Below, in pieces: positions 1,832 through 40,782 of a stretch of 64,000 nucleotides of DNA. This DNA is from an uncultured Prevotella sp. GTDB lineage: Bacteria > Bacteroidota > Bacteroidia > Bacteroidales > Bacteroidaceae. Position numbers and translations under genes: made by a program. The stretch covers positions 29,000 through 92,999 of the forward strand of contig CAJOEC010000002.1 of NCBI GenBank assembly GCA_905233425.1, given 5' to 3'. Numbering within the stretch: position 1 is the stretch's first letter; each line of letters starts with the position of its first letter. Under the pieces are notes generated by a model. It had not been told where the DNA came from. It worked only from the letters and a program-made list of their open reading frames with translations, and searched no databases.

Positions 1832-4579
1832 ATGAAGACTTTTGGATATTTCGACGATAAGAACAGGGAATACGTCATCACCGACCCGGCAACACCGTTC
1901 CCATGGATAAACTACTTAGGCAATGAAGATTTCTTCGGACTGATAAGCAACACCGCCGGCGGCTACGACTTCTACAAGGACGCCAAGTTCCGCCGCATCA
2001 CGCGCTATCGCTACAACGGAGTGCCAATGGATGCGGGGGGCAGATACTTCTATATCAAGGAAAGCCCCACCCCCGACCCCTCCCGCGGAGGGGAGGGGAG
2101 TAGTTACTCTGAGCCTTGGAGTCCGGGGTGGAAGCCCTGTAAGACCCCGCTCGACAGTTACGAGTGCCGCCATGGCATGAACTACACCCGCATTACGGGC
2201 AGTAAGAATGGGGTGGAGGCAAGCGTGCTATTCTTCGTGCCGCTGAAGACGTGGGCGGAGGTGCAGAAGCTGACGCTGACGAACAAGAGCGGAGATACGA
2301 AGCGGCTTAAGCTGTTCTCCTTCACGGAGTGGTGCCTCTGGAATGCGGCTACGGACATGGAGAACTTCCAACGCAACTGGTCGACGGGGGAGGTGGAGAT
2401 AGAGAAAGCCCCCCTTTCGCCCCCCGAGGGGGGCACTACACCCTCTGCCACTAAAAGTATAGAAGCCCCCTCGGGGGCCGTAGGGGGGGCTACAACGATT
2501 TACCACAAGACCGAATACAAGGAACGCCGCAACCACTACGCCTACTATGCGCTGACCAATGCCGAGGCGCAGGGCTTCGACACCGATCGCGAGAGCTTCA
2601 TCGGGCTGTATAACGATTTCTCGAACCCGCAGTGCGTCATGGCTGGGAAGCCCAGCAACAGCGTTGCGCATGGGTGGAGCCCCATAGCCTCCCATTACGT
2701 CGAGGTGGAGCTACAGCCAGGAGAAAGCAAGGACTTCATCTTCGTGCTGGGGTACGAGGAGAATGAACAGGAGAAGAAGTTCAGCAGCCCCACCCCCAGC
2801 AGACCCTCCCCCCAGCCCCTCCCTGTGAGGGAGGGGAGTATATACTCTCAAGACGGAAATACAGCAACAGAAGTAACTACTCCCCTCCCTCACAGGGAGG
2901 GGTCGGGGGAGGGTCTTCTTCTTACCTCCCTCGGCTCTCTTGACCACACCATTATTAATAAAGAGAAGGCACATGCCGTCATTTCGCGTTTCTCGACTGT
3001 GGAGGCAGTTGATGCAGCCTTCGCCGAGTTGCGGGCAATGTGGGACGGGCTGCTGTCGAAGTTCACCGTGGAGAGCGGCGACGAGCGGCTCGACAGGATG
3101 GTGAATATCTGGAACCAGTACCAGTGCATGATCACGTTCTGCTTCTCCCGTAGCGCGTCATTCTTCGAGAGTGGCGTGGGGCGTGGCATGGGATTCCGCG
3201 ACTCAAACCAGGACCTTGTGGGCTTCGTCCACCAGATTCCGAGCCGTGCACGGCAGAGGATTATCGACATCGCCTCGACGCAGTTCCCCGACGGCGGTTG
3301 CTACCACCAGTACCAGCCACTGACGAAACGAGGCAACAACGACATCGGCGGAGGGTTCAACGACGACCCCTGCTGGCTCATCTTCGGCACGGTGGCATAT
3401 ATCAAGGAGACGGGCGACTTCTCCATCCTCGACGAGCCGGTGCCCTTCGACAACCAGCCGGGAACAGAGGTGTCGCTCTTTGAGCACCTGCGCATCTCGT
3501 TCAATCACGTCGTAGAGAACCTCGGCCCACATGCGCTGCCGCTCATAGGCCGCGCCGACTGGAACGACTGCCTGAACCTGAACTGCTTCTCATGGGACCC
3601 CAACGAGAGCTTCCAGACGACGGAGAACAACAGTGAAGGTTCGAAAGCCGAGAGCCTCATGATTGCCGGGCTGTTCGTGCTGACAGGGAAGCAGTACGTG
3701 GAGCTGTGCCGGGAGCTGGCTGGTTCGGTACACGGCGGCAATGCCGCCGTCTACAGGACAGAGGCCGACAGAGCACAAGGCTGTATCGACACCATGGTGG
3801 AGGCCGTGAAGAAGCACGGCTGGGACGGTGAGTGGTATCTCCGTGCCTACGACTTCTACGGCAACAAGATTGGAAGCAAGGAATGCGAGGAGGGAAAAAT
3901 CTTCATCGAGAGCCAGGGCTTCTGCACGATGGCAGGAATAGGACTTGAAGAGGGAATGGTCGACAAGGCCCTCGACTCGTGCAAGAAACACCTCGACTGC
4001 GAACACGGCATGGTGCTGAACAATCCCGCCTTCACCCGCTACTATGTGGAGATGGGCGAAATCTCAAGCTATCCAGCAGGCTACAAGGAGAACGCAGGTA
4101 TCTTCTGCCACAACAACCCGTGGGTTATCATCGGCGAGACCGTGGCACGACGTGGCAACGACGCCTGGGAGCACTACACGAAGATCGGCCCCGCGTGGAT
4201 CAAGGACCAGCAGCTGCACAAGGTGGAGCCTTACGTCTACTGTCAGATGGTGGCCGGCAAGGACGCCGCCAAGCCCGGAGAGGGCAAGAACTCATGGCTC
4301 ACCGGCACCGCCGCATGGAACTGGCTGACCATCACCCAGTATATCCTCGGCATTCGGCCTACCTATGACGGACTGGAGATTGACCCCTGCATTCCCTCGA
4401 CGCTGAAGGAATATCGCGTGCACCGCGTCCTCCGCGACGCTGAGTTCGAAATAACGGTGAAGAACCCCGACGGGAAACAGAGCGGGGTGACGAGCGTGAC
4501 CCTCGACGGGAAAACCGTCGAGCGCGGCCGTGCCATAAAGGCAACGCCGGGTAAGCATGTCGTTGAAGTGATAATGTAA
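1832..4579 (+). CDS. GH94 cellobiose/cellodextrin phosphorylase (cytoplasmic), with three in-frame repeat insertions
   Basis: The N-terminus [30 protein letters not shown] and the catalytic-region motif [11 protein letters not shown] match GH94 phosphorylases along the whole length. There is no signal peptide. The ORF is 915 aa versus roughly 810-820 aa for characterised enzymes. Confidence 0.9.
2063..2110. repeat. GC-rich hairpin insertion 1 inside GH94 (solo arm of the MITE-like family)
   Basis: agccccaccccc..CCCCTCC-cgc-GGAGGGG (stem 2077-2083/2087-2093)..gaggggagta..actct. It shares flanking strings with the left arm of the 2801-2917 element and encodes [16 protein letters not shown]. 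Confidence 0.7.
2406..2492. repeat. GC-rich nested-palindrome insertion 2 inside GH94
   Basis: Perfect palindromes GCCCCCCGAGGGGGGC (2419-2434) and GCCCCCTCGGGGGC (2465-2478), bounded by AGCCCCCC (2407) and GGGGGGCT (2484). Encodes [29 protein letters not shown]. Confidence 0.7.
2801..2917. repeat. 117-bp MITE-like element with ~35-nt terminal inverted repeats, in frame inside GH94
   Basis: Left arm agaccctccccccagcccctccctgtgagggagggg (2801-2836). Right arm cccctccctcacagggaggggtcgggggagggtct (2883-2917) is its near-perfect reverse complement. 117 bp equals 39 codons with no stop. Confidence 0.8.
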
Positions 4580-8587: not shown

Positions 8588-11500
8588 ATGATTAAAATAA
8601 AAACGATTCTCTGCTTGCTCTTTACAGGCATGTCAGGGATGCCGCTGATGGCCGATGCCAGTTCAGCGGCATCCGCTTTGGCCGGCGGCTCTGCGACGCA
8701 TGAGGCCGCTCCGGCACCCGACGACCAGACTATTACTGGTGTCGTGGAGGATGCCGAAGGGCCTATGATTGGCGCCACCGTCAAGGTGGTGGGTTCATCG
8801 GCCGGAACTGTTACCGACCTAAACGGAAAATTCACCATCAGGTGCAAACCCGGCGATATGCTTGAGGTGAGTTACGTGGGCTACACGCCAGTCAAACTAC
8901 AGGCCAAAAACGGTATGAAGATTGTTTTGGCCGAGGACAAGACACAGCTGAGCGAGGTAGTTGTAACCGCTCTCGGCGTGAAGCGCGACCGCAAGGCCCT
9001 GGGCTACGGTCTGGCTGAGGTAAAGGGCGAGGAGCTGACCAAGGCCAAGGAGACCAACGTCATCAACTCGCTGTCGGGTAAGGTGGCAGGCCTCGTGGTG
9101 CAGAACACAGCCGGCGGTGCCTCTGGCTCCACCCGCGTGCTATTGCGAGGCAATACGGAAATGACGGGCAACAACCAGCCCCTGTATGTCATCGACGGTG
9201 TGCCTCTTGACAACACCAACTTCGGGGCTGCGGGCGTCGAAGGCGGCTACGACCTGGGCGACGGCATCTCGGCCATTAACCCCGACGACATTGAGAACAT
9301 GACGGTGCTGAAAGGCCCCGCCGCATCGGCACTCTACGGCTCGCGTGCCTCGCATGGTGTCATACTCATCACCACGAAGAAGGCCGAGAAGGACAAAGTC
9401 TCAGTCGAGTACAACGGTTCGCTGACCGTCGACGTGCAGAACGCCGAGTGGGACGACATACAGGAGGTCTATGGCATGGGCTACAGCGGAGCTTACAGCA
9501 AGACGGCGACAAGCGGCACCAACAGCAGTTGGGGACCGAAGGCCGACGACTTCCTCGTAGAGTACTTCGACCACGAGAAACGTCCGTTCCTGATGTACCC
9601 GAACAACACGAGCGATTTCTTCCGTACAGGTCTGACCACGCAGAATACTGCAATACTGTCGGTCAACTCCGGGAAGACCGGGGTCCGCTTCTCCGTCACC
9701 GACATGAGGAACAAGGACATACTGCCGCAGACCCACATGAGCCGCGACAACTTCAATCTGCGTGTGACAACGGCGGCAGGACCCGTCGACTTTGACTTCA
9801 CCGCCAACTACACCCGCGAAGACGTGAAGAACCGTCCGGCACTGGGCGACTCGCAGAGCAACGTGGGCAAGAACCTTATGACACTGGCCGGGACGTACAA
9901 CCAGGCATGGCTGAAGAACTACCAGACAGCCGAGGGCGAATACGCCAACTGGAACGGCAACGACCAGTACAACAAGAACCCCTACTGGGACCTCTACAAG
10001 AACGAGAACACATCGGCAAAGGACGTGTTCCGTCTGACAGCCAAGGCCATCTGGAACATCACCGACCACCTGAAGCTACAGGGCACCGTGGGCACCGACA
10101 TGAGTTTCATGGACTTCGAGGACTTCATAGCCCGCACCACTCCCGGCAAGCTGGCCGGACAGCTGCTGCAACAGAAGTTCAATAACCGCACGCTCAATGC
10201 CGAGCTGCTGGCTCTCTACAACCAGTCATTCGGCGACTTCGACATCAACGCCACCCTTGGCGGCAACATCTTCAAGGTGTCGAACCACACCGACATCTTC
10301 ACCGGTCTGGACCAGCAGATGAAGGACGTAATCGCCATAATGAACTACGCCGAGCAGAGCATCCAGCAGAACCAGTACCGCAAGCAAATCAACTCCATTT
10401 ATGGCTCAGCCAGTGTGGGCTACCAGCACACCTACTATTTAGAGGCCACCGTCCGCGGCGACAAGTCGTCGACGCTGCCTATAAATAATAATGTGTACGT
10501 GTACCCATCGTTCTCTGGCTCGGTTGTCTTCTCTGAGTTCATCAAGAACAAGAGCCTTATCAACTACGGTAAGGTTCGCGCCTCGTGGGCACAGGTGGGT
10601 AGCGACACCGACCCCTACCAGCTCGCGCTGAACTACTCGACGGCCAAATACAGCTACGGCGGCTTCGTCATCGGTATGATCAACAACACCACGACACCCA
10701 ACAAGGATCTGAAGCCCACACGTACCAACTCGTTTGAGCTGGGTCTCGAGATGAAATTCTTCAACGGTCGTCTCGGCCTCGACTTCACCTACTATAACCA
10801 GTTGTCGAAAGACCAGATCATCGGACTCGCCTCGTCGTCGACCTCCGGCTATAACTACCGTTTGGTAAATGCCGGCGAGATAGAGAACAAAGGTATAGAG
10901 GTCACGCTCAACGGCCGTGTGCTGCAGATCAAGGACTTCGCCTGGGATGCCGGTGTGAACTTCTCGAAAAACAAGAACAAAGTTAAGTCGCTCGTCGAGG
11001 GCATGGACTACTTCGAGCTTGAGAAGGCCACATGGTGCGGTGTCAGCGTTGGCGCCGAGGTGGGCAAGAACTACGGCTCCATCATCGGTAAGGACTATGT
11101 GCGCAATGAGAAGGGCGAGGTCATCATCAATACTGATAGCGGTCTTCCCATGACCGACGACAAGACCCACACCTTGGGCAACGCATCGTGGGACTGGACA
11201 GGCGGTTTCTATTCCACCTTCACTTACAAGAACTTCCGCCTCTCTGCCGGCTTCGACGTGAAAGTCGGTGCCGACCTCTTCTCGATGTCGATGCGCTCGG
11301 CCTACGCCACGGGTAAGGCTTCCGAGACGCTCGAAGGCCGCGAGGAGTACTACCTGTCGCAGGAAAAGCGCAGAGAGCTCAACATGTCGAACGACGAGTG
11401 GAACGAAAACATTAAGACGCTGCTCGCCCTCGAACCTGACGACCAGAAGCGCGTCGAGATGGGCAAGACGTATGGCTACGTCGTACCCGGAGTCATAGAC

Positions 11501-35396: not shown

Positions 35397-35559
35397 CCAA
35401 AGTCGACAATTGGAACTATGTTTTAGCAAAACAGAAAAAAACAACAAAAACAGATAAAAACCATTTGTCCTGTTTTTCTCGGTTTTTCTTGTTTTTTCCT
35501 GTATTTCTAAAAAGCATTGGCTACTTAGTAACAGTAAAGAAACAAATAGCGTTAATGTA

Positions 35560-36147
35560 GTGAATATCAAGAGATTCATAGGGGTGGTCACTGCTACTTT
35601 CTTTGTGGCCTGGCTTCTGCTGGTGTTGCTGTCGTGGCTGTTGTCGGCCACGATGGTGCCCGGTGTCAGGTCGCTGCTCACGGGCGAAGGTCTCCGCTGG
35701 TTCTTCTCACATCTCGTTGACGGCATCGCCACGCCGATGCTCGTCTGGCTGCTCATGGCCGCCATGGCCGGAGGGTGTCTTGCACGCTGTGGCATATTCA
35801 ATTTCCAGTCCTCGACCCTCAACCTTCGGTCTCGTCCGTTGCGCCTCGCCCTTCTCTTGCTGCTTGCATATATCTTTCTCCTTTCTCTGCTCACCGCTGT
35901 TCCCCATGCCGCGCTCCTGTCAGCGACTGGCACGCTGAGCCATTCGCCGTTCAGCCGCGCCATAGTTCCACTGGCCGCCGCTGCCGTCGTGCTTTTCAGC
36001 GTGGCCTACGGGCTGGTTGCCCATGCCTTCGAGTCGCTGGCCGACATCACCGATGCCATGGTCTTCGGATTGGCCAAGGCAGCGCCATTGCTTTTCGTCT
36101 ACATCGCAGCAATGGTATTCCTCCGCACCCTGAACTACGTGTTCTGA
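35560..36147 (+). CDS. Hypothetical polytopic membrane protein
   Basis: Five to six hydrophobic helices. GTG start is uncertain. The segment SLLTGEGLRWFFSHLV faintly resembles AbgT-family N-termini. Confidence 0.4.
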   Translation: MNIKRFIGVVTATFFVAWLLLVLLSWLLSATMVPGVRSLLTGEGLRWFFSHLVDGIATPMLVWLLMAAMAGGCLARCGIFNFQSSTLNLRSRPLRLALLLLLAYIFLLSLLTAVPHAALLSATGTLSHSPFSRAIVPLAAAAVVLFSVAYGLVAHAFESLADITDAMVFGLAKAAPLLFVYIAAMVFLRTLNYVF

Positions 36148-36300
36148 GATTTATAATTGGCTCTACGAGATCCGTGTTGGCCATTATGACACAGTCTTGT
36201 GGTCGCTTTCGCACCAATACGGGGAATCATGGAGAATAGTACGGGAAAACAGGAAGAGAGGTTCGGCTTCCGAGGGAGTCAGCCCGTACACCCGCGGTTC

Positions 36301-36383
36301 ATAGCGCCCGCCAAAAACATTCACAGCGGCCGCTACGAATATTAATAGCGTCCGCCAAAAACATTCACAGCGGCCGCTACGAA
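36301..36383. repeat. Two 39-bp direct repeats (44-bp period), each carrying a 20-bp near-palindrome TTCacAGCGGCCGCTacGAA
   Basis: atagcgcccgccaaaaacattcacagcggccgctacgaa (36301-36339) and atagcgtccgccaaaaacattcacagcggccgctacgaa (36345-36383). A partial third copy starts near 36426. Confidence 0.8.
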
Positions 36384-36582
36384 CCAAATTTTCACCTACT
36401 TCACACCGTGGCCTCACACTACGCAATAGCGTGCAAACGCAAAAACTTGGTTATTTGACATTTCGCAAAGGATATTTGACATTATTTTGCCTGTAAGGCC
36501 GATTATCCCTAATTTTGCACAGCAAACAGCAATCTGTTGGTGAAAAAACGTGAAAACATTTGGTGGTGAGACAGGAAAGCAG

Positions 36583-36590
36583 TACTTTTG
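36583..36590 (+). promoter_or_regulatory. Candidate -7 box (TACTTTTG) for the antitoxin-PIN remnant gene
   Basis: Matches TAnnTTTG, 32 nt upstream of ATG 36622. A second box, TAATTTTG, lies at 36500-36507. Confidence 0.4.
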
Positions 36591-36621
36591 CCAATCAAAA
36601 GAGAACTGAAACAAAGGAACA

Positions 36622-37032
36622 ATGAGAACAACAGCAGTAAACATAAGCACATCACTTTATAACCACGTTTACCAGTATGCTCAAAGGCAGAACACAAGCG
36701 TGGACAGAATACTGGAGGCGTTTATCCTAACGCTACCAAATTATGAAGCAAAAGAGAAAAAACTAAAGCGTCCTACTGAGTATTCGCCCGAACTTCTGAA
36801 GTTGGTAGGAGCCGTGAAAGGAGACTATCAGCAGGATGACCTGAACGGCGACGAAGCCCGATGGGATTATCTGAAGGAGAAATATAATCTAGATTTTGAA
36901 GATATGCTGCAATATGAGTCTGCAAATGCCGCTAATTGTGATGTCATCATTACCAGAAACGGAAAGCATTTTCCTCAAGACAATATACAAATCATGACAC
37001 CAACAGAATTCTTGGAACAATATACAGAATAA
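36622..37032 (+). CDS. Antitoxin-like (DUF6364/RHH-type) N-terminus fused to the C-terminal ~45 aa of a PIN-domain toxin (decayed TA locus)
   Basis: The N-terminal part ends in ..RWDYLKEKYNL, like small Bacteroidetes antitoxins. The remainder, DFEDMLQYESANAANCDVIITRNGKHFPQDNIQIMTPTEFL, is the typical C-terminal strand-helix of VapC-type PIN proteins but lacks the N-terminal acidic residues. Confidence 0.5.
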   Translation: MRTTAVNISTSLYNHVYQYAQRQNTSVDRILEAFILTLPNYEAKEKKLKRPTEYSPELLKLVGAVKGDYQQDDLNGDEARWDYLKEKYNLDFEDMLQYESANAANCDVIITRNGKHFPQDNIQIMTPTEFLEQYTE

Positions 37033-37040
37033 ACAATAAG

Positions 37041-37143
37041 TATTTTTATTACTAACTAAACAAAAAAACAATGAAAAAAACAAAACTCTTCAAGTCGCTC
37101 CTCGTAGCAGCTGGGCTGTGCGTGGGGGCAAGTGCGTGGGCAG
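37041..37143 (+). repeat. Direct repeat copy 1 (leader plus signal-peptide codons of the T9SS cargo gene)
   Basis: About 103 bp, near-identical to 37878-37980 (one mismatch in the coding part, small A-run differences upstream). Confidence 0.9.
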
Positions 37144-37160
37144 AAGAGGGAAAACAATAA
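37071..37160 (+). pseudogene. Orphan duplicated 5' end (signal peptide only, 29 codons) of the downstream T9SS cargo gene
   Basis: MKKTKLFKSLLVAAGLCVGASAWA is identical to residues 1-24 of the 37908 gene. It then diverges (EEGKQ) and stops. Confidence 0.8.
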
Positions 37161-37175
37161 GAAATCCGAACGATT

Positions 37176-37439
37176 ATGTTGATAGATGACTACAATTATT
37201 TCGACCAGCACCGCAAGGAACTGGCGACGGCCTATCCCGACAAATGGCTTCTCATCAAAGACCAGAAGGTGCTCTTTGCCGTGGACACGCTCCTGCAAGC
37301 TCTGGACACCACCTACAAGAACGGCATGAAGGAGGGTGACTGTCTCACCACATTCTGCCGGAAGGACGGGAAGAAAGAAATCATAAGAATAGGACGGGCA
37401 CACATTTCACCAAGCAGCTATGCAGACAGAAGAGCCTAA
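37176..37439 (+). CDS. Small DUF5678-like protein (putative partner of the adjacent protease)
   Basis: 87 aa. The segment ..HRKELATAYPDKWLLIKDQKVLFAVDTLLQAL.. resembles the DUF5678 pattern (recall only). It overlaps the next gene by 20 nt. Confidence 0.4.
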   Translation: MLIDDYNYFDQHRKELATAYPDKWLLIKDQKVLFAVDTLLQALDTTYKNGMKEGDCLTTFCRKDGKKEIIRIGRAHISPSSYADRRA

Positions 37440-37854
37440 GGCATTCACTAAATCGTACCCCGGCTATGTTGATGAACTCTATAAAGAGTGCAGCGTCTAT
37501 AACTACCGGGGGCGCAAGGCCGACTATCTCGCTTTTTGGGATACAGGAGCAAGCAATTCGCTAATCACTAAGAAGGTGGCGGAAGACTTGCAGCCCGCCG
37601 TGTCAGAATTTGCTGAGTTGTATCATGCAGGAGGCAGCAACTTGTCGAACTGCTATAACGTGTTCATCGAACTGCCTAACGAGATACTGATAGGGCCGCT
37701 GAAGGTCATAGAAGGGCAAATCGAGGGTTCCGACGTTCTGATAGGCATGGACATCATTGGCAGTGGAGACTTAATGATAACAAACAACGACGAACATACA
37801 GAATTAGCGTTCTCCATCCCATCAAGCCTGAAAGTAAAAGATATATTCAAATAG
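37420..37854 (+). CDS. Retropepsin-like (clan AA) single-domain aspartic protease
   Basis: Active-site motif FWDTGASNSLI and the downstream flap/dimer motif DVLIGMDIIG. At 144 aa it matches homodimeric bacterial retropepsin-like proteins. Confidence 0.7.
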   Translation: MQTEEPKAFTKSYPGYVDELYKECSVYNYRGRKADYLAFWDTGASNSLITKKVAEDLQPAVSEFAELYHAGGSNLSNCYNVFIELPNEILIGPLKVIEGQIEGSDVLIGMDIIGSGDLMITNNDEHTELAFSIPSSLKVKDIFK

Positions 37855-37877
37855 CAAAAAAATTAGCAAAATAATTC

Positions 37878-37980
37878 TATTTATTAACTAACTAAACAAA
37901 AAAAACAATGAAAAAAACAAAACTATTCAAGTCGCTCCTCGTAGCAGCTGGGCTGTGCGTGGGGGCAAGTGCGTGGGCAG
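37878..37980 (+). repeat. Direct repeat copy 2 (native 5' end of the T9SS cargo gene)
   Basis: See copy 1. The period is 837 bp. Confidence 0.9.
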
Positions 37981-40382
37981 CAGGCTACACCCGGACATTA
38001 ACGGCTTCCTTAGAAGTCTCTGGCTACAAGAATGGTACACTCTATGATTTCCAAAACAACAATCCAGAGGTTCTTCCTACCAGCGGTGATTTACGTTATC
38101 GTGCATACGAGAATGGAGGTTATTGGGGGCTTCACAACTTTGGTGGTGGGGCTCGTTCTGCTACAGTGTCTATTGCCGTTTCCACAGGAAATCTTCTAGT
38201 TCTACAAGACTACAGCAGTACTTATCCTACTACTGTTAATGTAGGAACTCTGGACGAGGCTCTGTCGTCATCCACAGGCTATCGTTGCTTTAATATTACA
38301 TCAGATGTCACAACGATTACTTTGAGTTGTCCTCGTTATGGTGGCGTTGTTGCCGCTCTCTTAATGGAGAAGGACGCTTCCGTTGAAACTGCTGATTATA
38401 CTATTAATTACGTTTGTAACAGCGAAACTGTTAAGACAACCACAGGTAATACTACCGTTGGCAGCAGTGTTAATACTGAGGCTTCGTTCTTTGCAAACGG
38501 TGTGAAATATATTCGTGATAATGGTGAAGCAGAAAGTGTTACCATTGCAGCTACAGGCAACACCTTCACTGTGAATGTACATCAGGCTCCAAAGTATACC
38601 TATACACTTAATGCTGTTGATGGTGACAATAACTTACTCAAAGTGCTGGGTACTGGCGAGCAGTATGAAGGAGAAAATGCTACGGTTTATTTCAATAAGG
38701 CATTCTTCTTAAATGGTAAATGGTATATTACTGATGCTGTAGGTAACTGGGTATTCCACAAGGATTATACTTCTGCAGACATAGTGTTTACAGAAGATGC
38801 TAGCATCTCCTATTTCATTGAGGTAGAGGATATTAATACGTCTCATAGTTGGGCAGCAACAGGTGACTATGCTAATCTTTATTCTAATGGTAAGGTTGGA
38901 CGTCTGTATAAAGATTCTTACGCATATACCGATGCTTTGGAAGGTGGCATTTACACTGTGACCCTTTGGGGGCGTAACCATGCAGGCTCTACAACAGCAA
39001 ACGTAGCAGTTTATGTACGTGATTCTGAGGGCAACGAGACAAAGTGCCATAATCAGTTTGAGGAATGGGGCAATGGTGCCCAGGGAGCAAAGTCCATCAT
39101 GATTGAGATTCCCGATGGCTACAGCCTTGAGCTCAAGAACGAGAACGCTGATTACAACAGCAATTTGGAGATGGACTACCTCATCCTGCGTAAGAGCGGC
39201 ATCAATACTATGTCTATTGTTGGATTTACTCCTGAAAGTGGCCTGAACGACGCTGACAAGTGGAATCCTGCCAATGGCATCGCCATGACACGTGACGCAG
39301 ATGATCCTTCAGTTTGGACGGCTGTTGTTGAGAACTACATTATCAGGGGAAGTGGCTCTGAACTGAAATACTATTACAAGGCAGCCGCTAACGGTACTTT
39401 TGATGGTTATCAGCTTCCTGCTTCTGGCAATCAAAACTTTGATTTTAACTATAGTGAGGCTGGAGAAGGCAAGTATAAACTGACTTTCACTGCTAATACA
39501 TTCACAAACGAAGTAAGTTTGGCTATTGAGAAGCAGATTACTGGCACTATTTATTATGTAAACACTTGGGATTGGTCAACCGTTTCTGCTTGGGTATGGA
39601 ATGACTCTAAGAATTTCACAGGTGGTAATTGGCCTGGGCAAGGCATGACTAAGACCGAGGATCAAATAGACGGACACGATGTTTACGTTTGGAGCACATA
39701 CGATATTGACACTCCAACTTCTGTCATCTTTAATGATGGTAGCAGCAATAACCAAACTGGTACTTTGACTTACGAGAACGGTGCTACCTACGGCTATTAT
39801 GGCGCATCCACCGTCTCCAAAACCATTACCGCTGCTGGATACGCCACTTATTGTAGTGAAAATGCTCTTGATTTCACTGGCACAGGGCTGACCGCTTACA
39901 TCGCCAAAAAGGATGAGCAGAATGCTTCGAAGATAATCTTTGTGTCTGTTACAAAGGTTCCTGCCAATACAGGTTTACTTCTGAAGGGTGATGCAGGTAA
40001 TCACACCATTAACACAACTACAAGTAACGAACTTGATGATGTTACAAATAATGTCCTCAAGGGTGTGACCAAGGCAGAGAGTAAAGAGGCTGGCATCTTC
40101 GTCCTGATGAACGGTTCTAAGGGCGTTGGTTTCTACATGACCACAAAGACCTTTACCGTGGGTGCCAATACTGCTTACATTCCCTCTTTGAACGAACTGG
40201 CTGGTGGTGGCGGCGAGGTCCGCTTCATCGGCTTCAACTTTGACGGCGAGACCACTGGTGTTGATGGTATTGCCACAGTTCAGCAGAACAATGGCGAGGT
40301 TTACAACCTGCAGGGCCAGCGTGTCAGCGCAGCCAAGAAGGGACTCTACATCATCAATGGCAAGAAAGTCCTTGTGAAGTAA
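37908..40382 (+). CDS. T9SS-secreted surface protein with CBM-like module
   Basis: Signal peptide. The C-terminus ..GEVYNLQGQRVSAAKKGLYIINGKKVLVK fits the T9SS type A sorting-domain pattern. YYVNTWDWSTVSAWVWND..GGNWPGQGMT resembles starch/glycan-binding modules. Confidence 0.7.
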   Translation: MKKTKLFKSLLVAAGLCVGASAWAAGYTRTLTASLEVSGYKNGTLYDFQNNNPEVLPTSGDLRYRAYENGGYWGLHNFGGGARSATVSIAVSTGNLLVLQDYSSTYPTTVNVGTLDEALSSSTGYRCFNITSDVTTITLSCPRYGGVVAALLMEKDASVETADYTINYVCNSETVKTTTGNTTVGSSVNTEASFFANGVKYIRDNGEAESVTIAATGNTFTVNVHQAPKYTYTLNAVDGDNNLLKVLGTGEQYEGENATVYFNKAFFLNGKWYITDAVGNWVFHKDYTSADIVFTEDASISYFIEVEDINTSHSWAATGDYANLYSNGKVGRLYKDSYAYTDALEGGIYTVTLWGRNHAGSTTANVAVYVRDSEGNETKCHNQFEEWGNGAQGAKSIMIEIPDGYSLELKNENADYNSNLEMDYLILRKSGINTMSIVGFTPESGLNDADKWNPANGIAMTRDADDPSVWTAVVENYIIRGSGSELKYYYKAAANGTFDGYQLPASGNQNFDFNYSEAGEGKYKLTFTANTFTNEVSLAIEKQITGTIYYVNTWDWSTVSAWVWNDSKNFTGGNWPGQGMTKTEDQIDGHDVYVWSTYDIDTPTSVIFNDGSSNNQTGTLTYENGATYGYYGASTVSKTITAAGYATYCSENALDFTGTGLTAYIAKKDEQNASKIIFVSVTKVPANTGLLLKGDAGNHTINTTTSNELDDVTNNVLKGVTKAESKEAGIFVLMNGSKGVGFYMTTKTFTVGANTAYIPSLNELAGGGGEVRFIGFNFDGETTGVDGIATVQQNNGEVYNLQGQRVSAAKKGLYIINGKKVLVK

Positions 40383-40430
40383 AAGGGTAAGTAATAATGA
40401 ATGTTTAAAAACCAAAAAGAAAACAGAAAA

Positions 40431-40616
40431 ATGAAAAAGACATATCAAACACCCGAGACGCTGCTGACTGCTGTCGAGCTTCAGCAGATGATAGCTATCA
40501 GTGGCAACGGCTATGGCCAGCCCGAACTGGGTCAGGACCTTGACAAAGTCGAGGATACCCAAGCCTCCGATGGCAACCTCTCCCGCCGTCGTTCCGTTTG
40601 GGACGATGAGGATTAA
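40431..40616 (+). CDS. Small hypothetical protein (61 aa), acidic C-terminus
   Basis: MKKTYQTPETLLTAVELQQMIAISG.. starts 49 nt after the cargo gene and is followed by a clean terminator. There is no hydrophobic signal core. Confidence 0.35.
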   Translation: MKKTYQTPETLLTAVELQQMIAISGNGYGQPELGQDLDKVEDTQASDGNLSRRRSVWDDED

Positions 40617-40646
40617 TCTTGTCGATATTGACACTGTGAAAAGAAT

Positions 40647-40677
40647 GGCCGGTTCCGTGTTGGAGCCGGCCTTTCTT
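40647..40677 (+). terminator. Intrinsic terminator
   Basis: Stem ggccggttcc (40647-40656) / ggagccggcc (40662-40671) followed by tttctt. Confidence 0.7.
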
Positions 40678-40782
40678 GTGCAAAAGCGGGTGTTTTGTGT
40701 TACAAAGCAAATGATTTGCGTGAAAAATCATCATTTTTAGGTAAAAAATTTGGTGGTATGGCTTTTTCTTCTTACCTTTGCA

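Follow-up and report, generated by a model that had tools for sequence, protein, structure and literature searches.

A repeated leader and signal-peptide unit bounds a DUF5678-retropepsin gene pair and other small gene cassettes upstream of surface-protein genes in Prevotella-like bacteria

Why should the 5' end of a surface-protein gene be present twice, with two small genes between the copies? The question is raised by a 64,000-nt stretch of DNA from an uncultured Prevotella sp. (assembly GCA_905233425.1, contig CAJOEC010000002.1, positions 29,000 to 92,999), referred to here as the window, with coordinates counted from its first nucleotide. In the window, a 103-bp unit that we call R, comprising a leader, a start codon and the coding sequence of a signal peptide, stands at the start of a gene for a secreted CBM26 surface protein and again upstream of a pair of small genes, B and C, which encode a DUF5678-type protein and a predicted retropepsin-fold aspartic protease. 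The same unit precedes the cassettes of whole arrays in related metagenomic loci. The reading that we favour, with a probability of roughly 0.55, is that homologous recombination and gene conversion at R shuffle addictive cassettes, B-C among them, upstream of surface-protein genes.

Both copies in the window lie on the + strand and were matched by an nhmmer profile of R: the upstream copy R1 at 37041-37143 (E 5.9e-18) and R2, the functional 5' end of the surface-protein gene, at 37878-37980 (E 1.3e-18). Their 73-nt coding stretch, which codes for MKKTKLFKSLLVAAGLCVGASAWA, occurs exactly twice in the window (37071-37143 and 37908-37980), whereas none was expected from 100 shuffles; the only difference between the copies here is a synonymous C/A substitution at codon 6. 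Three small indels in homopolymer tracts distinguish the AT-rich leaders of 30 nt (37041-37070 and 37878-37907), and the identity of R1 and R2 is 95% with gaps counted. It breaks off at GCAG/A versus GCAG/C, directly 3' of the predicted signal-peptidase site ASAWA. On R1 this leaves an orphan signal-peptide open reading frame (ORF) of 29 codons (37071-37160), which ends 16 nt 5' of the B start; the 734-bp spacer between R1 and R2 encodes B and C only. An earlier interpretation made from the letters of this DNA (the sequence-only reading) had described the duplication, its coordinates, its one substitution in the coding part and the orphan ORF, all of which were borne out. The 103-bp direct repeat is real and not an assembly artefact, because the identical R1-B-C-R2 arrangement is found on four contigs. 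A general role of the orphan ORF as a conserved leader peptide that couples translation was considered and dismissed, since the ORF varies among the related loci (designated L with a number): it overlaps the B start (ATGA) in L013 and has early stops in L007 and L011, and other copies have no ATG.

The sequence-only reading had also treated the repeat as a local bracket. R does bracket B-C, but this description is incomplete, as in multi-cassette arrays R stands between all cassettes. An R unit of ~100-115 nt precedes each cassette of unidirectional arrays, with 2-9 copies, in about ten related loci from metagenomes. The R profile identified two copies each in the window, L007 and L112, three each in L002, L013 and L111, and eight each in L011 and L012, with a ninth copy in L113, a longer stretch of the L011 locus. 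All copies are on the + strand. R extends from a T-rich/TTATTAACTAAC leader ~30-45 nt 5' of the start codon through the signal-peptidase site, and its 3' boundary lies at this site wherever R meets unrelated cassettes, at more than ten junctions. The last R of each array is the start of a large signal-peptide-bearing gene that encodes a CBM26 surface protein, referred to here as the cargo. The cassettes contain DUF6364-PIN, MNT-HEPN/HepT, B-C, DUF6169, DUF6722 and unknown pairs, several of them decayed; most are of the toxin-antitoxin type (DUF6364-PIN, MNT-HEPN and B-C). The order in L111 is DUF6364-PIN (intact)-R-B-C-R-DUF6169-R-cargo, and by its gene order this locus looks like a fuller version of the window array. 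These arrays are an undescribed kind of gene-cassette array in rumen and gut Prevotella-like bacteria, with the window as the smallest example; no published account of R-type cassette arrays turned up in full-text literature searches.

The copies of R that stand before cassettes differ from the copy that starts the cargo gene. In L007, L011/L012 and L013, whose C proteins are ~50% identical to that of the window, the R copy 5' of B is often decayed, by stops, frameshifts or a lost ATG, and the downstream gene has the intact version. Cassette-side copies end in CCCGGG, TTTCAG or AAGAG (type-T copies all in AAGAG) and share derived, ORF-killing changes, such as ATG to ATA in six L011 copies. These shared derived changes indicate that the cassette-side copies propagate among themselves. 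As a separate observation, L022 carries on its reverse strand three tandem surface-protein paralogues, with a 62-aa small ORF after the first and the R-type leader and signal peptide (MKKLLLKSLLVAAGLCVGAMSSWA) only on the third.

R is where cassettes have been gained and lost and where mosaic breakpoints lie. Across B-C and R, L013 matches L014 at 96.8% identity but has an additional MNT-HEPN cassette plus R exactly between two R copies. Compared with L111, L002 has an additional block of R, promoter and PIN cassette. From just past the R start codon, L011 and L012 are 99.3% identical, and upstream of that point they are unrelated. Two crossovers could be resolved, and they lie at different positions in R, one near the ATG and the other in the leader. 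R1-B-C-R2 of the window is collinear with L111 at only 75.6% identity, and the R-B-C-R arrangement is therefore old. R1 and R2 are nevertheless 95% alike, compared with 67-86% for R pairs within other arrays. This near-identity suggests that gene conversion, or homologous re-integration, took place recently, and does not fit an ancient scar.

The surroundings and composition of R were also examined. No recombinase, integrase or transposase was found among the called genes within 4-10 kb of the arrays in five chromosomal contexts (the window, L002/L003, L013, L110 and L113), which have differing housekeeping surroundings. Half of R is AT-rich leader and half is GC-rich coding sequence. Folding of eight R strands as single-stranded DNA gave z values of -1.8 to +0.85 relative to shuffles, with no attC-like fold.

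The reading frames of the two small genes, both on the + strand, overlap by 20 nt. B (37176-37439), the proposed antitoxin or partner, was delimited from its ORF, profile matches and a homologue alignment, and encodes 87 aa. Against Pfam DUF5678 (PF18929) it scores 11.8 bits (E 0.23), below the cut-off of 23.2. Its aligned homologues match the family in 25 of 32 cases at E<=0.01 (best 1.3e-8), and B aligns over its full length with those that match. By these profile and alignment data, B probably belongs to a divergent DUF5678 family. Its predicted model, of low confidence with a predicted local distance difference test (pLDDT) score of 66, is alpha-beta-beta-alpha-beta with a disordered C-terminal tail. 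Purifying selection on both genes is strong: the ratio of nonsynonymous to synonymous substitution rates (dN/dS) of B is 0.03-0.09, and for C, dN is 0.094 and synonymous sites are saturated.

C (37420-37854), the proposed effector, was recognised from its ORF, motifs and model fold. Its 144 aa include FWDTGAS and LIGMD motifs, with the catalytic DTGA intact. Across 26 C-family sequences, W40 D41 T42 G43 A44, L107, G109 M110 and G116 D117 are invariant and I108 and D111 occur in at least 90%, so that the second motif region, LIGMDIIGSGD, is invariant or nearly so along with WDTGA. C itself falls below the Pfam gathering cut-offs of PF13975 and PF13650 (20.4 and 19.8 bits versus 28.2 and 24.3, respectively), and retropepsin domains of these types are annotated in most C homologues (precomputed annotation). 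The AlphaFold2 model of C has a pLDDT of 89.4. When this model was compared with the PDB using Foldseek, the best match was the Rickettsia retropepsin ApRick (5c9f, E 1.8e-6), followed by the protease of xenotropic murine leukemia virus-related virus (XMRV) and the Ddi1 RVP domain; a C-family profile searched against PDB sequences matched Ddi1 at 1.7e-3. C is thus predicted to be a retropepsin-fold aspartic protease of clan AA. More distant C homologues are 165-205 aa long and mostly have a basic C-terminal tail, a few having a tail with a SEC-C zinc motif (PF02810); the Prevotella subfamily (144-147 aa) has neither.

Scanning one genome per GTDB species gave 291 loci encoding a relative of C, in the candidate phyla radiation, Bacteroidota, Firmicutes, Chloroflexi, Proteobacteria and other phyla. 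A B homologue of 77-90 aa lies directly 5' of C in 65 of the 74 analysable loci, in many phyla, and no neighbour other than B recurs in these 65 cross-phylum loci. B-C is an autonomous, co-conserved two-gene module. The sequence-only reading had called B a DUF5678-type protein and C retropepsin-like, and had asked whether the two are conserved together; on all three counts the wider family agrees with it. Full-text literature searches turned up no published description of a DUF5678-retropepsin pair. No C homologue was found in PLSDB plasmids, and C relatives are rare in phage records; Leptospira LE1-like phages (KF114879, KF114880 and KX656785) carry an unannotated C homologue with ~35% identity across 67% of the query. 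Several individual loci may be recorded here. Directly 5' of B-C in L106 (2569-4852) and L107 are genes for a BstXI-like restriction enzyme, an N6/N4 methyltransferase and a helix-turn-helix (HTH) regulator, a defence-island context. L089, from a Bacteroidales metagenome-assembled genome, has 36-37-nt repeats at 66-67-nt spacing (10221-10396), resembling clustered regularly interspaced short palindromic repeats (CRISPR), ~2 kb from the pair. A decayed pair, consisting of an 85-aa B' and a 62-aa C remnant, lies at the array 5' end of L011 (145-724, equal to L113 4145-4724), and in L110 (6425-6505) C has a large internal deletion while B is intact.

How might these arrays have come about? R is the functional 5' end of the secreted CBM26 gene, reiterated in the same orientation before each small upstream cassette. 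We propose that homologous recombination between R copies adds, deletes, duplicates and exchanges cassettes, both within an array and between R-carrying paralogues, and that it does so by unequal crossing-over, by looping-out followed by Campbell-type re-integration, or by gene conversion. Because direct repeats delete the DNA that stands between them, the cassettes that survive would be mainly addictive modules of the toxin-antitoxin (TA) type; the same persistence logic has already been proposed for TA cassettes in chromosomal integrons. B-C would be one such module, in which C would act as the effector, as a dimeric retropepsin-type protease, and B, a small protein of DUF5678 type whose C-terminal tail is predicted to be disordered, would be its cognate inhibitor or partner. 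That B-C behaves as an addictive module is the best reading of its layout, its company and its cross-phylum autonomy, with the toxin and antitoxin roles putative.

The R arrays resemble chromosomal integrons and clusters of attC sites lacking integron-integrases (CALINs) in several ways. In both, small unidirectional cassettes, often promoterless, are bounded by a reiterated site of ~60-140 nt, the content varies between close relatives, and TA modules are abundant, which is thought to protect the array from repeat-mediated deletion. In contrast to attC, R is a copied protein-coding 5' end rather than an imperfect palindrome, and has no attC-like single-strand fold. There is also no IntI-type integrase among the called genes within 4-10 kb of the R arrays, the array terminates in a functional gene whose own start is the last repeat, and the taxon is Prevotella-like Bacteroidota. 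Another resemblance is to the orphan toxin/immunity arrays 3' of rhs, cdiA and other polymorphic-toxin genes, which likewise adjoin a large secreted-protein gene and in which short homology to the main gene flanks silent cassettes and permits recombinational swapping. In the R arrays, however, the homology is at the 5' end and the arrays are upstream, and the cassettes are complete independent genes rather than alternative domains, so recombination leaves the secreted protein unchanged.

B-C itself resembles type II TA systems in being a pair of small co-directional genes, overlapping or abutting, in which the small protein comes first, in its autonomous existence with horizontal mobility across phyla, and in its interleaving with bona fide TA modules (DUF6364-PIN and MNT-HEPN). 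It differs in that the putative effector is a clan-AA aspartic protease and B has no recognisable DNA-binding fold. To our knowledge, no characterised toxin is of the clan-AA aspartic protease type, and none was found in full-text literature searches. With Rickettsia APRc/ApRick, the Ddi1 RVP and retroviral proteases, C shares the fold, the D-T-G-A motif and the LIGMD second motif, and its size, that of a monomer, would imply an active homodimer. C differs from the known retropepsins in having only ~15% sequence identity to them, an extra N-terminal beta-hairpin region and an obligate pairing with a DUF5678 gene, and in having no membrane, ubiquitin-like or ubiquitin-associated domains.

Several points count against the proposal. 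Recombination was deduced by comparing different metagenomic lineages, and only two crossover points were localised, with which a site-specific mechanism acting in trans is also compatible. An empty-site allele of the window had been suggested as a check; searches with the identical rubrerythrin and C proteins as probes recovered neither an empty-site nor an excised-circle allele, only the same arrangement. The toxicity of C and its neutralisation by B are putative. A PDB search with the low-confidence model of B gave no structural neighbour, and in Pfam B matched no HTH, ribbon-helix-helix or AbrB family, leaving it with no recognisable DNA-binding domain; the B family also did not match the models of PDC-M08A, a component of a defence candidate considered below. 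Promoter and terminator calls at the locus are consensus matches only. Finally, the sample is about ten arrays from a narrow lineage: a degenerate R pattern had 0 matches in 185,579 GTDB species representatives and only 4 in Joint Genome Institute (JGI) metagenomes, one of these a chance match at a transfer RNA (tRNA) gene. The pattern likewise had 0 matches in viral contigs, and no R-like arrays surround B-C in ten other Bacteroidales/Bacteroidota GTDB loci, other Prevotella included. Since R is absent from the GTDB B-C loci and, by this pattern, from the GTDB representatives, the arrays belong to a narrow uncultured lineage of the rumen, gut and bioreactors.

Of the alternatives to recombination among addictive cassettes, the one that survives best, although we hold it only as a possibility of rather low probability, is that B-C serves mainly in abortive infection against phages, or as a regulated pair of protease and substrate, rather than in addiction, and that its position in the array is incidental. 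The PADLOC defence candidate PDC-M08, for which no describing paper was found in a full-text literature search, has a retropepsin-like component B; among 26 C-family members, 20 match the models of this component weakly, with best values of 3e-5 and 1.5e-7 and an E of 0.0027 for C of the window. The BstXI-like restriction-modification system that adjoins B-C in L106 and L107 and the C homologues of the Leptospira LE1-like phages are in keeping with such a role. The B family does not match component A, however, and no defence gene recurs beside B-C in the 65 cross-phylum loci. Moreover, an anti-phage role is compatible with a TA-like mechanism and does not exclude it.

It is also conceivable, but unlikely, that a dedicated site-specific recombinase, whose gene lies in another part of the genome, recognises R as its site, in an integron-like platform where the cargo-side R corresponds to attI and the cassette-side R to attC. 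The very sharp 3' boundary of R suits such a site, as does the separate sequence lineage of the cassette-side copies, with their ATA start and CCCGGG, TTTCAG or AAGAG ends, relative to the cargo-side copy; unidirectional cassettes, a reiterated ~100-nt unit and many TA modules are features of chromosomal integrons as well. The five array contexts, however, had no integrase or recombinase within 4-10 kb, R has no attC-like hairpin, the two mappable crossovers differ in their position in R, and ~100 nt at 67-95% identity suffices for RecA.

About equally improbable is that R copies are passive relics of tandem surface-protein paralogues, whose bodies were lost or replaced by TA modules, with recombination now over. 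Tandem cargo paralogues do exist, three of them in L022, and in L007 a 547-aa paralogue lies directly 5' of R-B-C-R-cargo; many cassette-side copies of R are decayed, as relics would be. Yet more than ten independent junctions share one end point, the signal-peptidase site, the cassette-side copies have derived mutations in common, and R copies partly cluster by array and not by position. Near-identical arrays also differ by entire R-bounded cassettes, and R1 and R2 are 95% alike though B-C has diverged by 24% from the collinear L111.

One recent event, in which a mobile B-C cassette inserted just 3' of the cargo signal peptide and duplicated a 103-bp target, would account for an R1 that is intact and near-identical to R2, but is very improbable. 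It is largely refuted by the comparative loci: the order R-B-C-R recurs in L111, L007, L011 and L013 at 50-76% identity, and R flanks other cassettes likewise. B-C also has no transposase or integrase, and 103 bp far exceeds any target-site duplication. Transposon insertion was rejected on the same grounds, with a repeat of 103 bp compared with 2-15 bp and an insert without a transposase; a repeat search of the window found no terminal inverted repeats around the 734-bp insert. The mechanism offered by the sequence-only reading therefore stands in part: the duplication is not that of a transposase target, and recombination at the 5' leader and signal sequence fits, but the locus is not a single fresh insertion. 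That the duplication is an assembly artefact, ~100-bp repeats being open to mis-joining in a metagenome assembly, is scarcely credible given the identical arrangement on four contigs, the one substitution and three indels that distinguish R1 from R2, and the recurrence of the R-bounded architecture in MEGAHIT, SPAdes and Logan assemblies of other samples.

If cassettes are genuinely exchanged at R, the arrays would represent integron-like plasticity without integrase or attC in dominant gut and rumen bacteria, a group in which integrons are rare. They would also explain how TA and defence genes gather 5' of large surface-protein genes. Among toxins or defence effectors, an aspartic protease would constitute a new mechanistic class, and the DUF5678-retropepsin pair, which has no described function, extends from bacteria of the candidate phyla radiation through Proteobacteria. 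More tentatively, the arrays may be an unrecognised Bacteroidota platform for cassette capture and shuffling at a leader/signal-peptide site, possibly with a recombinase in trans, that is analogous in function to an integron and preferentially holds addiction and defence modules, and the DUF5678-retropepsin pair may be a new phylum-spanning TA or defence family with a protease effector.

The cargo gene of the window (37908-40382, + strand) was identified from its ORF, signal peptide and CBM26 match (2.8e-11) and encodes 824 aa, the first 24 of which are those of the orphan ORF. The public gene call (L001/L105) starts this protein at 38364, giving 672 aa; it skips the signal peptide and thereby hides the repeat, which is a warning for annotation. 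The sequence-only reading had labelled the protein a cargo of the type IX secretion system (T9SS). This label was not confirmed: the T9SS C-terminal-domain models TIGR04183 and PF18962 gave no match at E<=10, with either the whole protein or its last 110-179 aa, no other Pfam or NCBIfam T9SS C-terminal-domain match was obtained, and CBM26 is the sole domain detected. Its C-terminal motif ...NLQGQRV...GLYIINGKKVLVK is like T9SS sorting domains by eye only. The C-terminal ~200 aa (39780-40379) form a widespread conserved module with at least 195 relatives and no covering Pfam domain or informative name.

Upstream of R1, a 136-aa ORF (36622-37032, + strand) is a decayed TA cassette, in which a complete DUF6364 antitoxin-like protein (residues 3-90; DUF6364 2.6e-5) continues in frame into the final ~46 residues of a PIN toxin, PIN_3 and PIN matching its C-terminal part only. 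It is 53% identical to the DUF6364 protein of L011 and 56% identical to residues 78-135 of the 138-aa PIN of the same locus. Given this in-frame fusion to a remnant, the TA module is dead, as had been supposed.

Two Bacteroidetes-type promoter motifs, TTTG-N17-23-TAnnTTTG, lie 5' of this cassette on the + strand (consensus matches at 36486-36517 and 36559-36590). Such motifs number 8 in the window compared with 0.7 expected, and none occurs from 36590 to 40749, at the rubrerythrin gene. A sigma-70 promoter scan performed at chance level, and the Bacteroidetes consensus was taken instead. A terminator-like G+C-rich hairpin followed by a T-run (40647-40671, + strand) would mark the end of both the transcription unit and a low-GC island, and only 37-54 nt separate the C stop codon from the cargo ATG in all arrays. 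Given the single promoter site, the downstream terminator and the short gap, the array and the surface-protein gene are probably co-transcribed as one unit from the promoter of the first, decayed cassette.

The second promoter motif is part of a ~50-nt module, GAAAAAACGTGAAAACATTTGG...TAnTTTTG, common to several cassettes, which suggests a portable cassette promoter. Copies of this module were noted at 36530-36600 in the window, at 3109-3199 and 4004-4094 in L002 and at ~5900-5990 in L008, before cassettes that are otherwise unrelated.

G+C is about 0.39-0.52 across 36.2-40.8 kb, lower than in the flanking DNA (about 0.53-0.65). At the left border of this low-GC island, repeat finding identified a GC-rich palindromic element of four ~22-bp units (TTCAYAGCGSCCGC...; 36274-36388, no strand assigned). 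The element is homologous, at 74-76% identity, to L110 5852-5963, where the copy lies upstream of another array, and it had only chance-level matches in Rfam. Four independent arrays have palindromic tandems with a period of ~21-22 bp a few hundred nt 5' of their first cassette (36298-36383 in the window, 5852-5963 in L110, 351-482 in L014 and ~3095-3180 in L113); the elements of L014 and L113 differ in sequence from those of the window and L110 and have the same period. Operators, iterons, an insulator or the left end of an island are candidate identities for the palindromic units. Known RNA families and tRNA attachment sites were not found in 35.3-41 kb.

Further left, a 195-aa ORF (35560-36147) matches only the middle of an AbgT transporter profile (252-353 of 502) and resembles a truncated gene at the left island border; a 41-nt AT-rich inverted repeat (35421-35512) is located just 5' of it. 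On the other side, the cargo gene is followed by a small ORF of 61 aa (40431-40616, + strand), also seen in L022, L002 (7939-8118), L111 (5426-5620) and L106 (2261-2425). ORFs of ~54-64 aa with no family match follow surface-protein genes in several loci, and those of the window and L022 share the pattern MKKTY..PET ... SRR..VW.DE.

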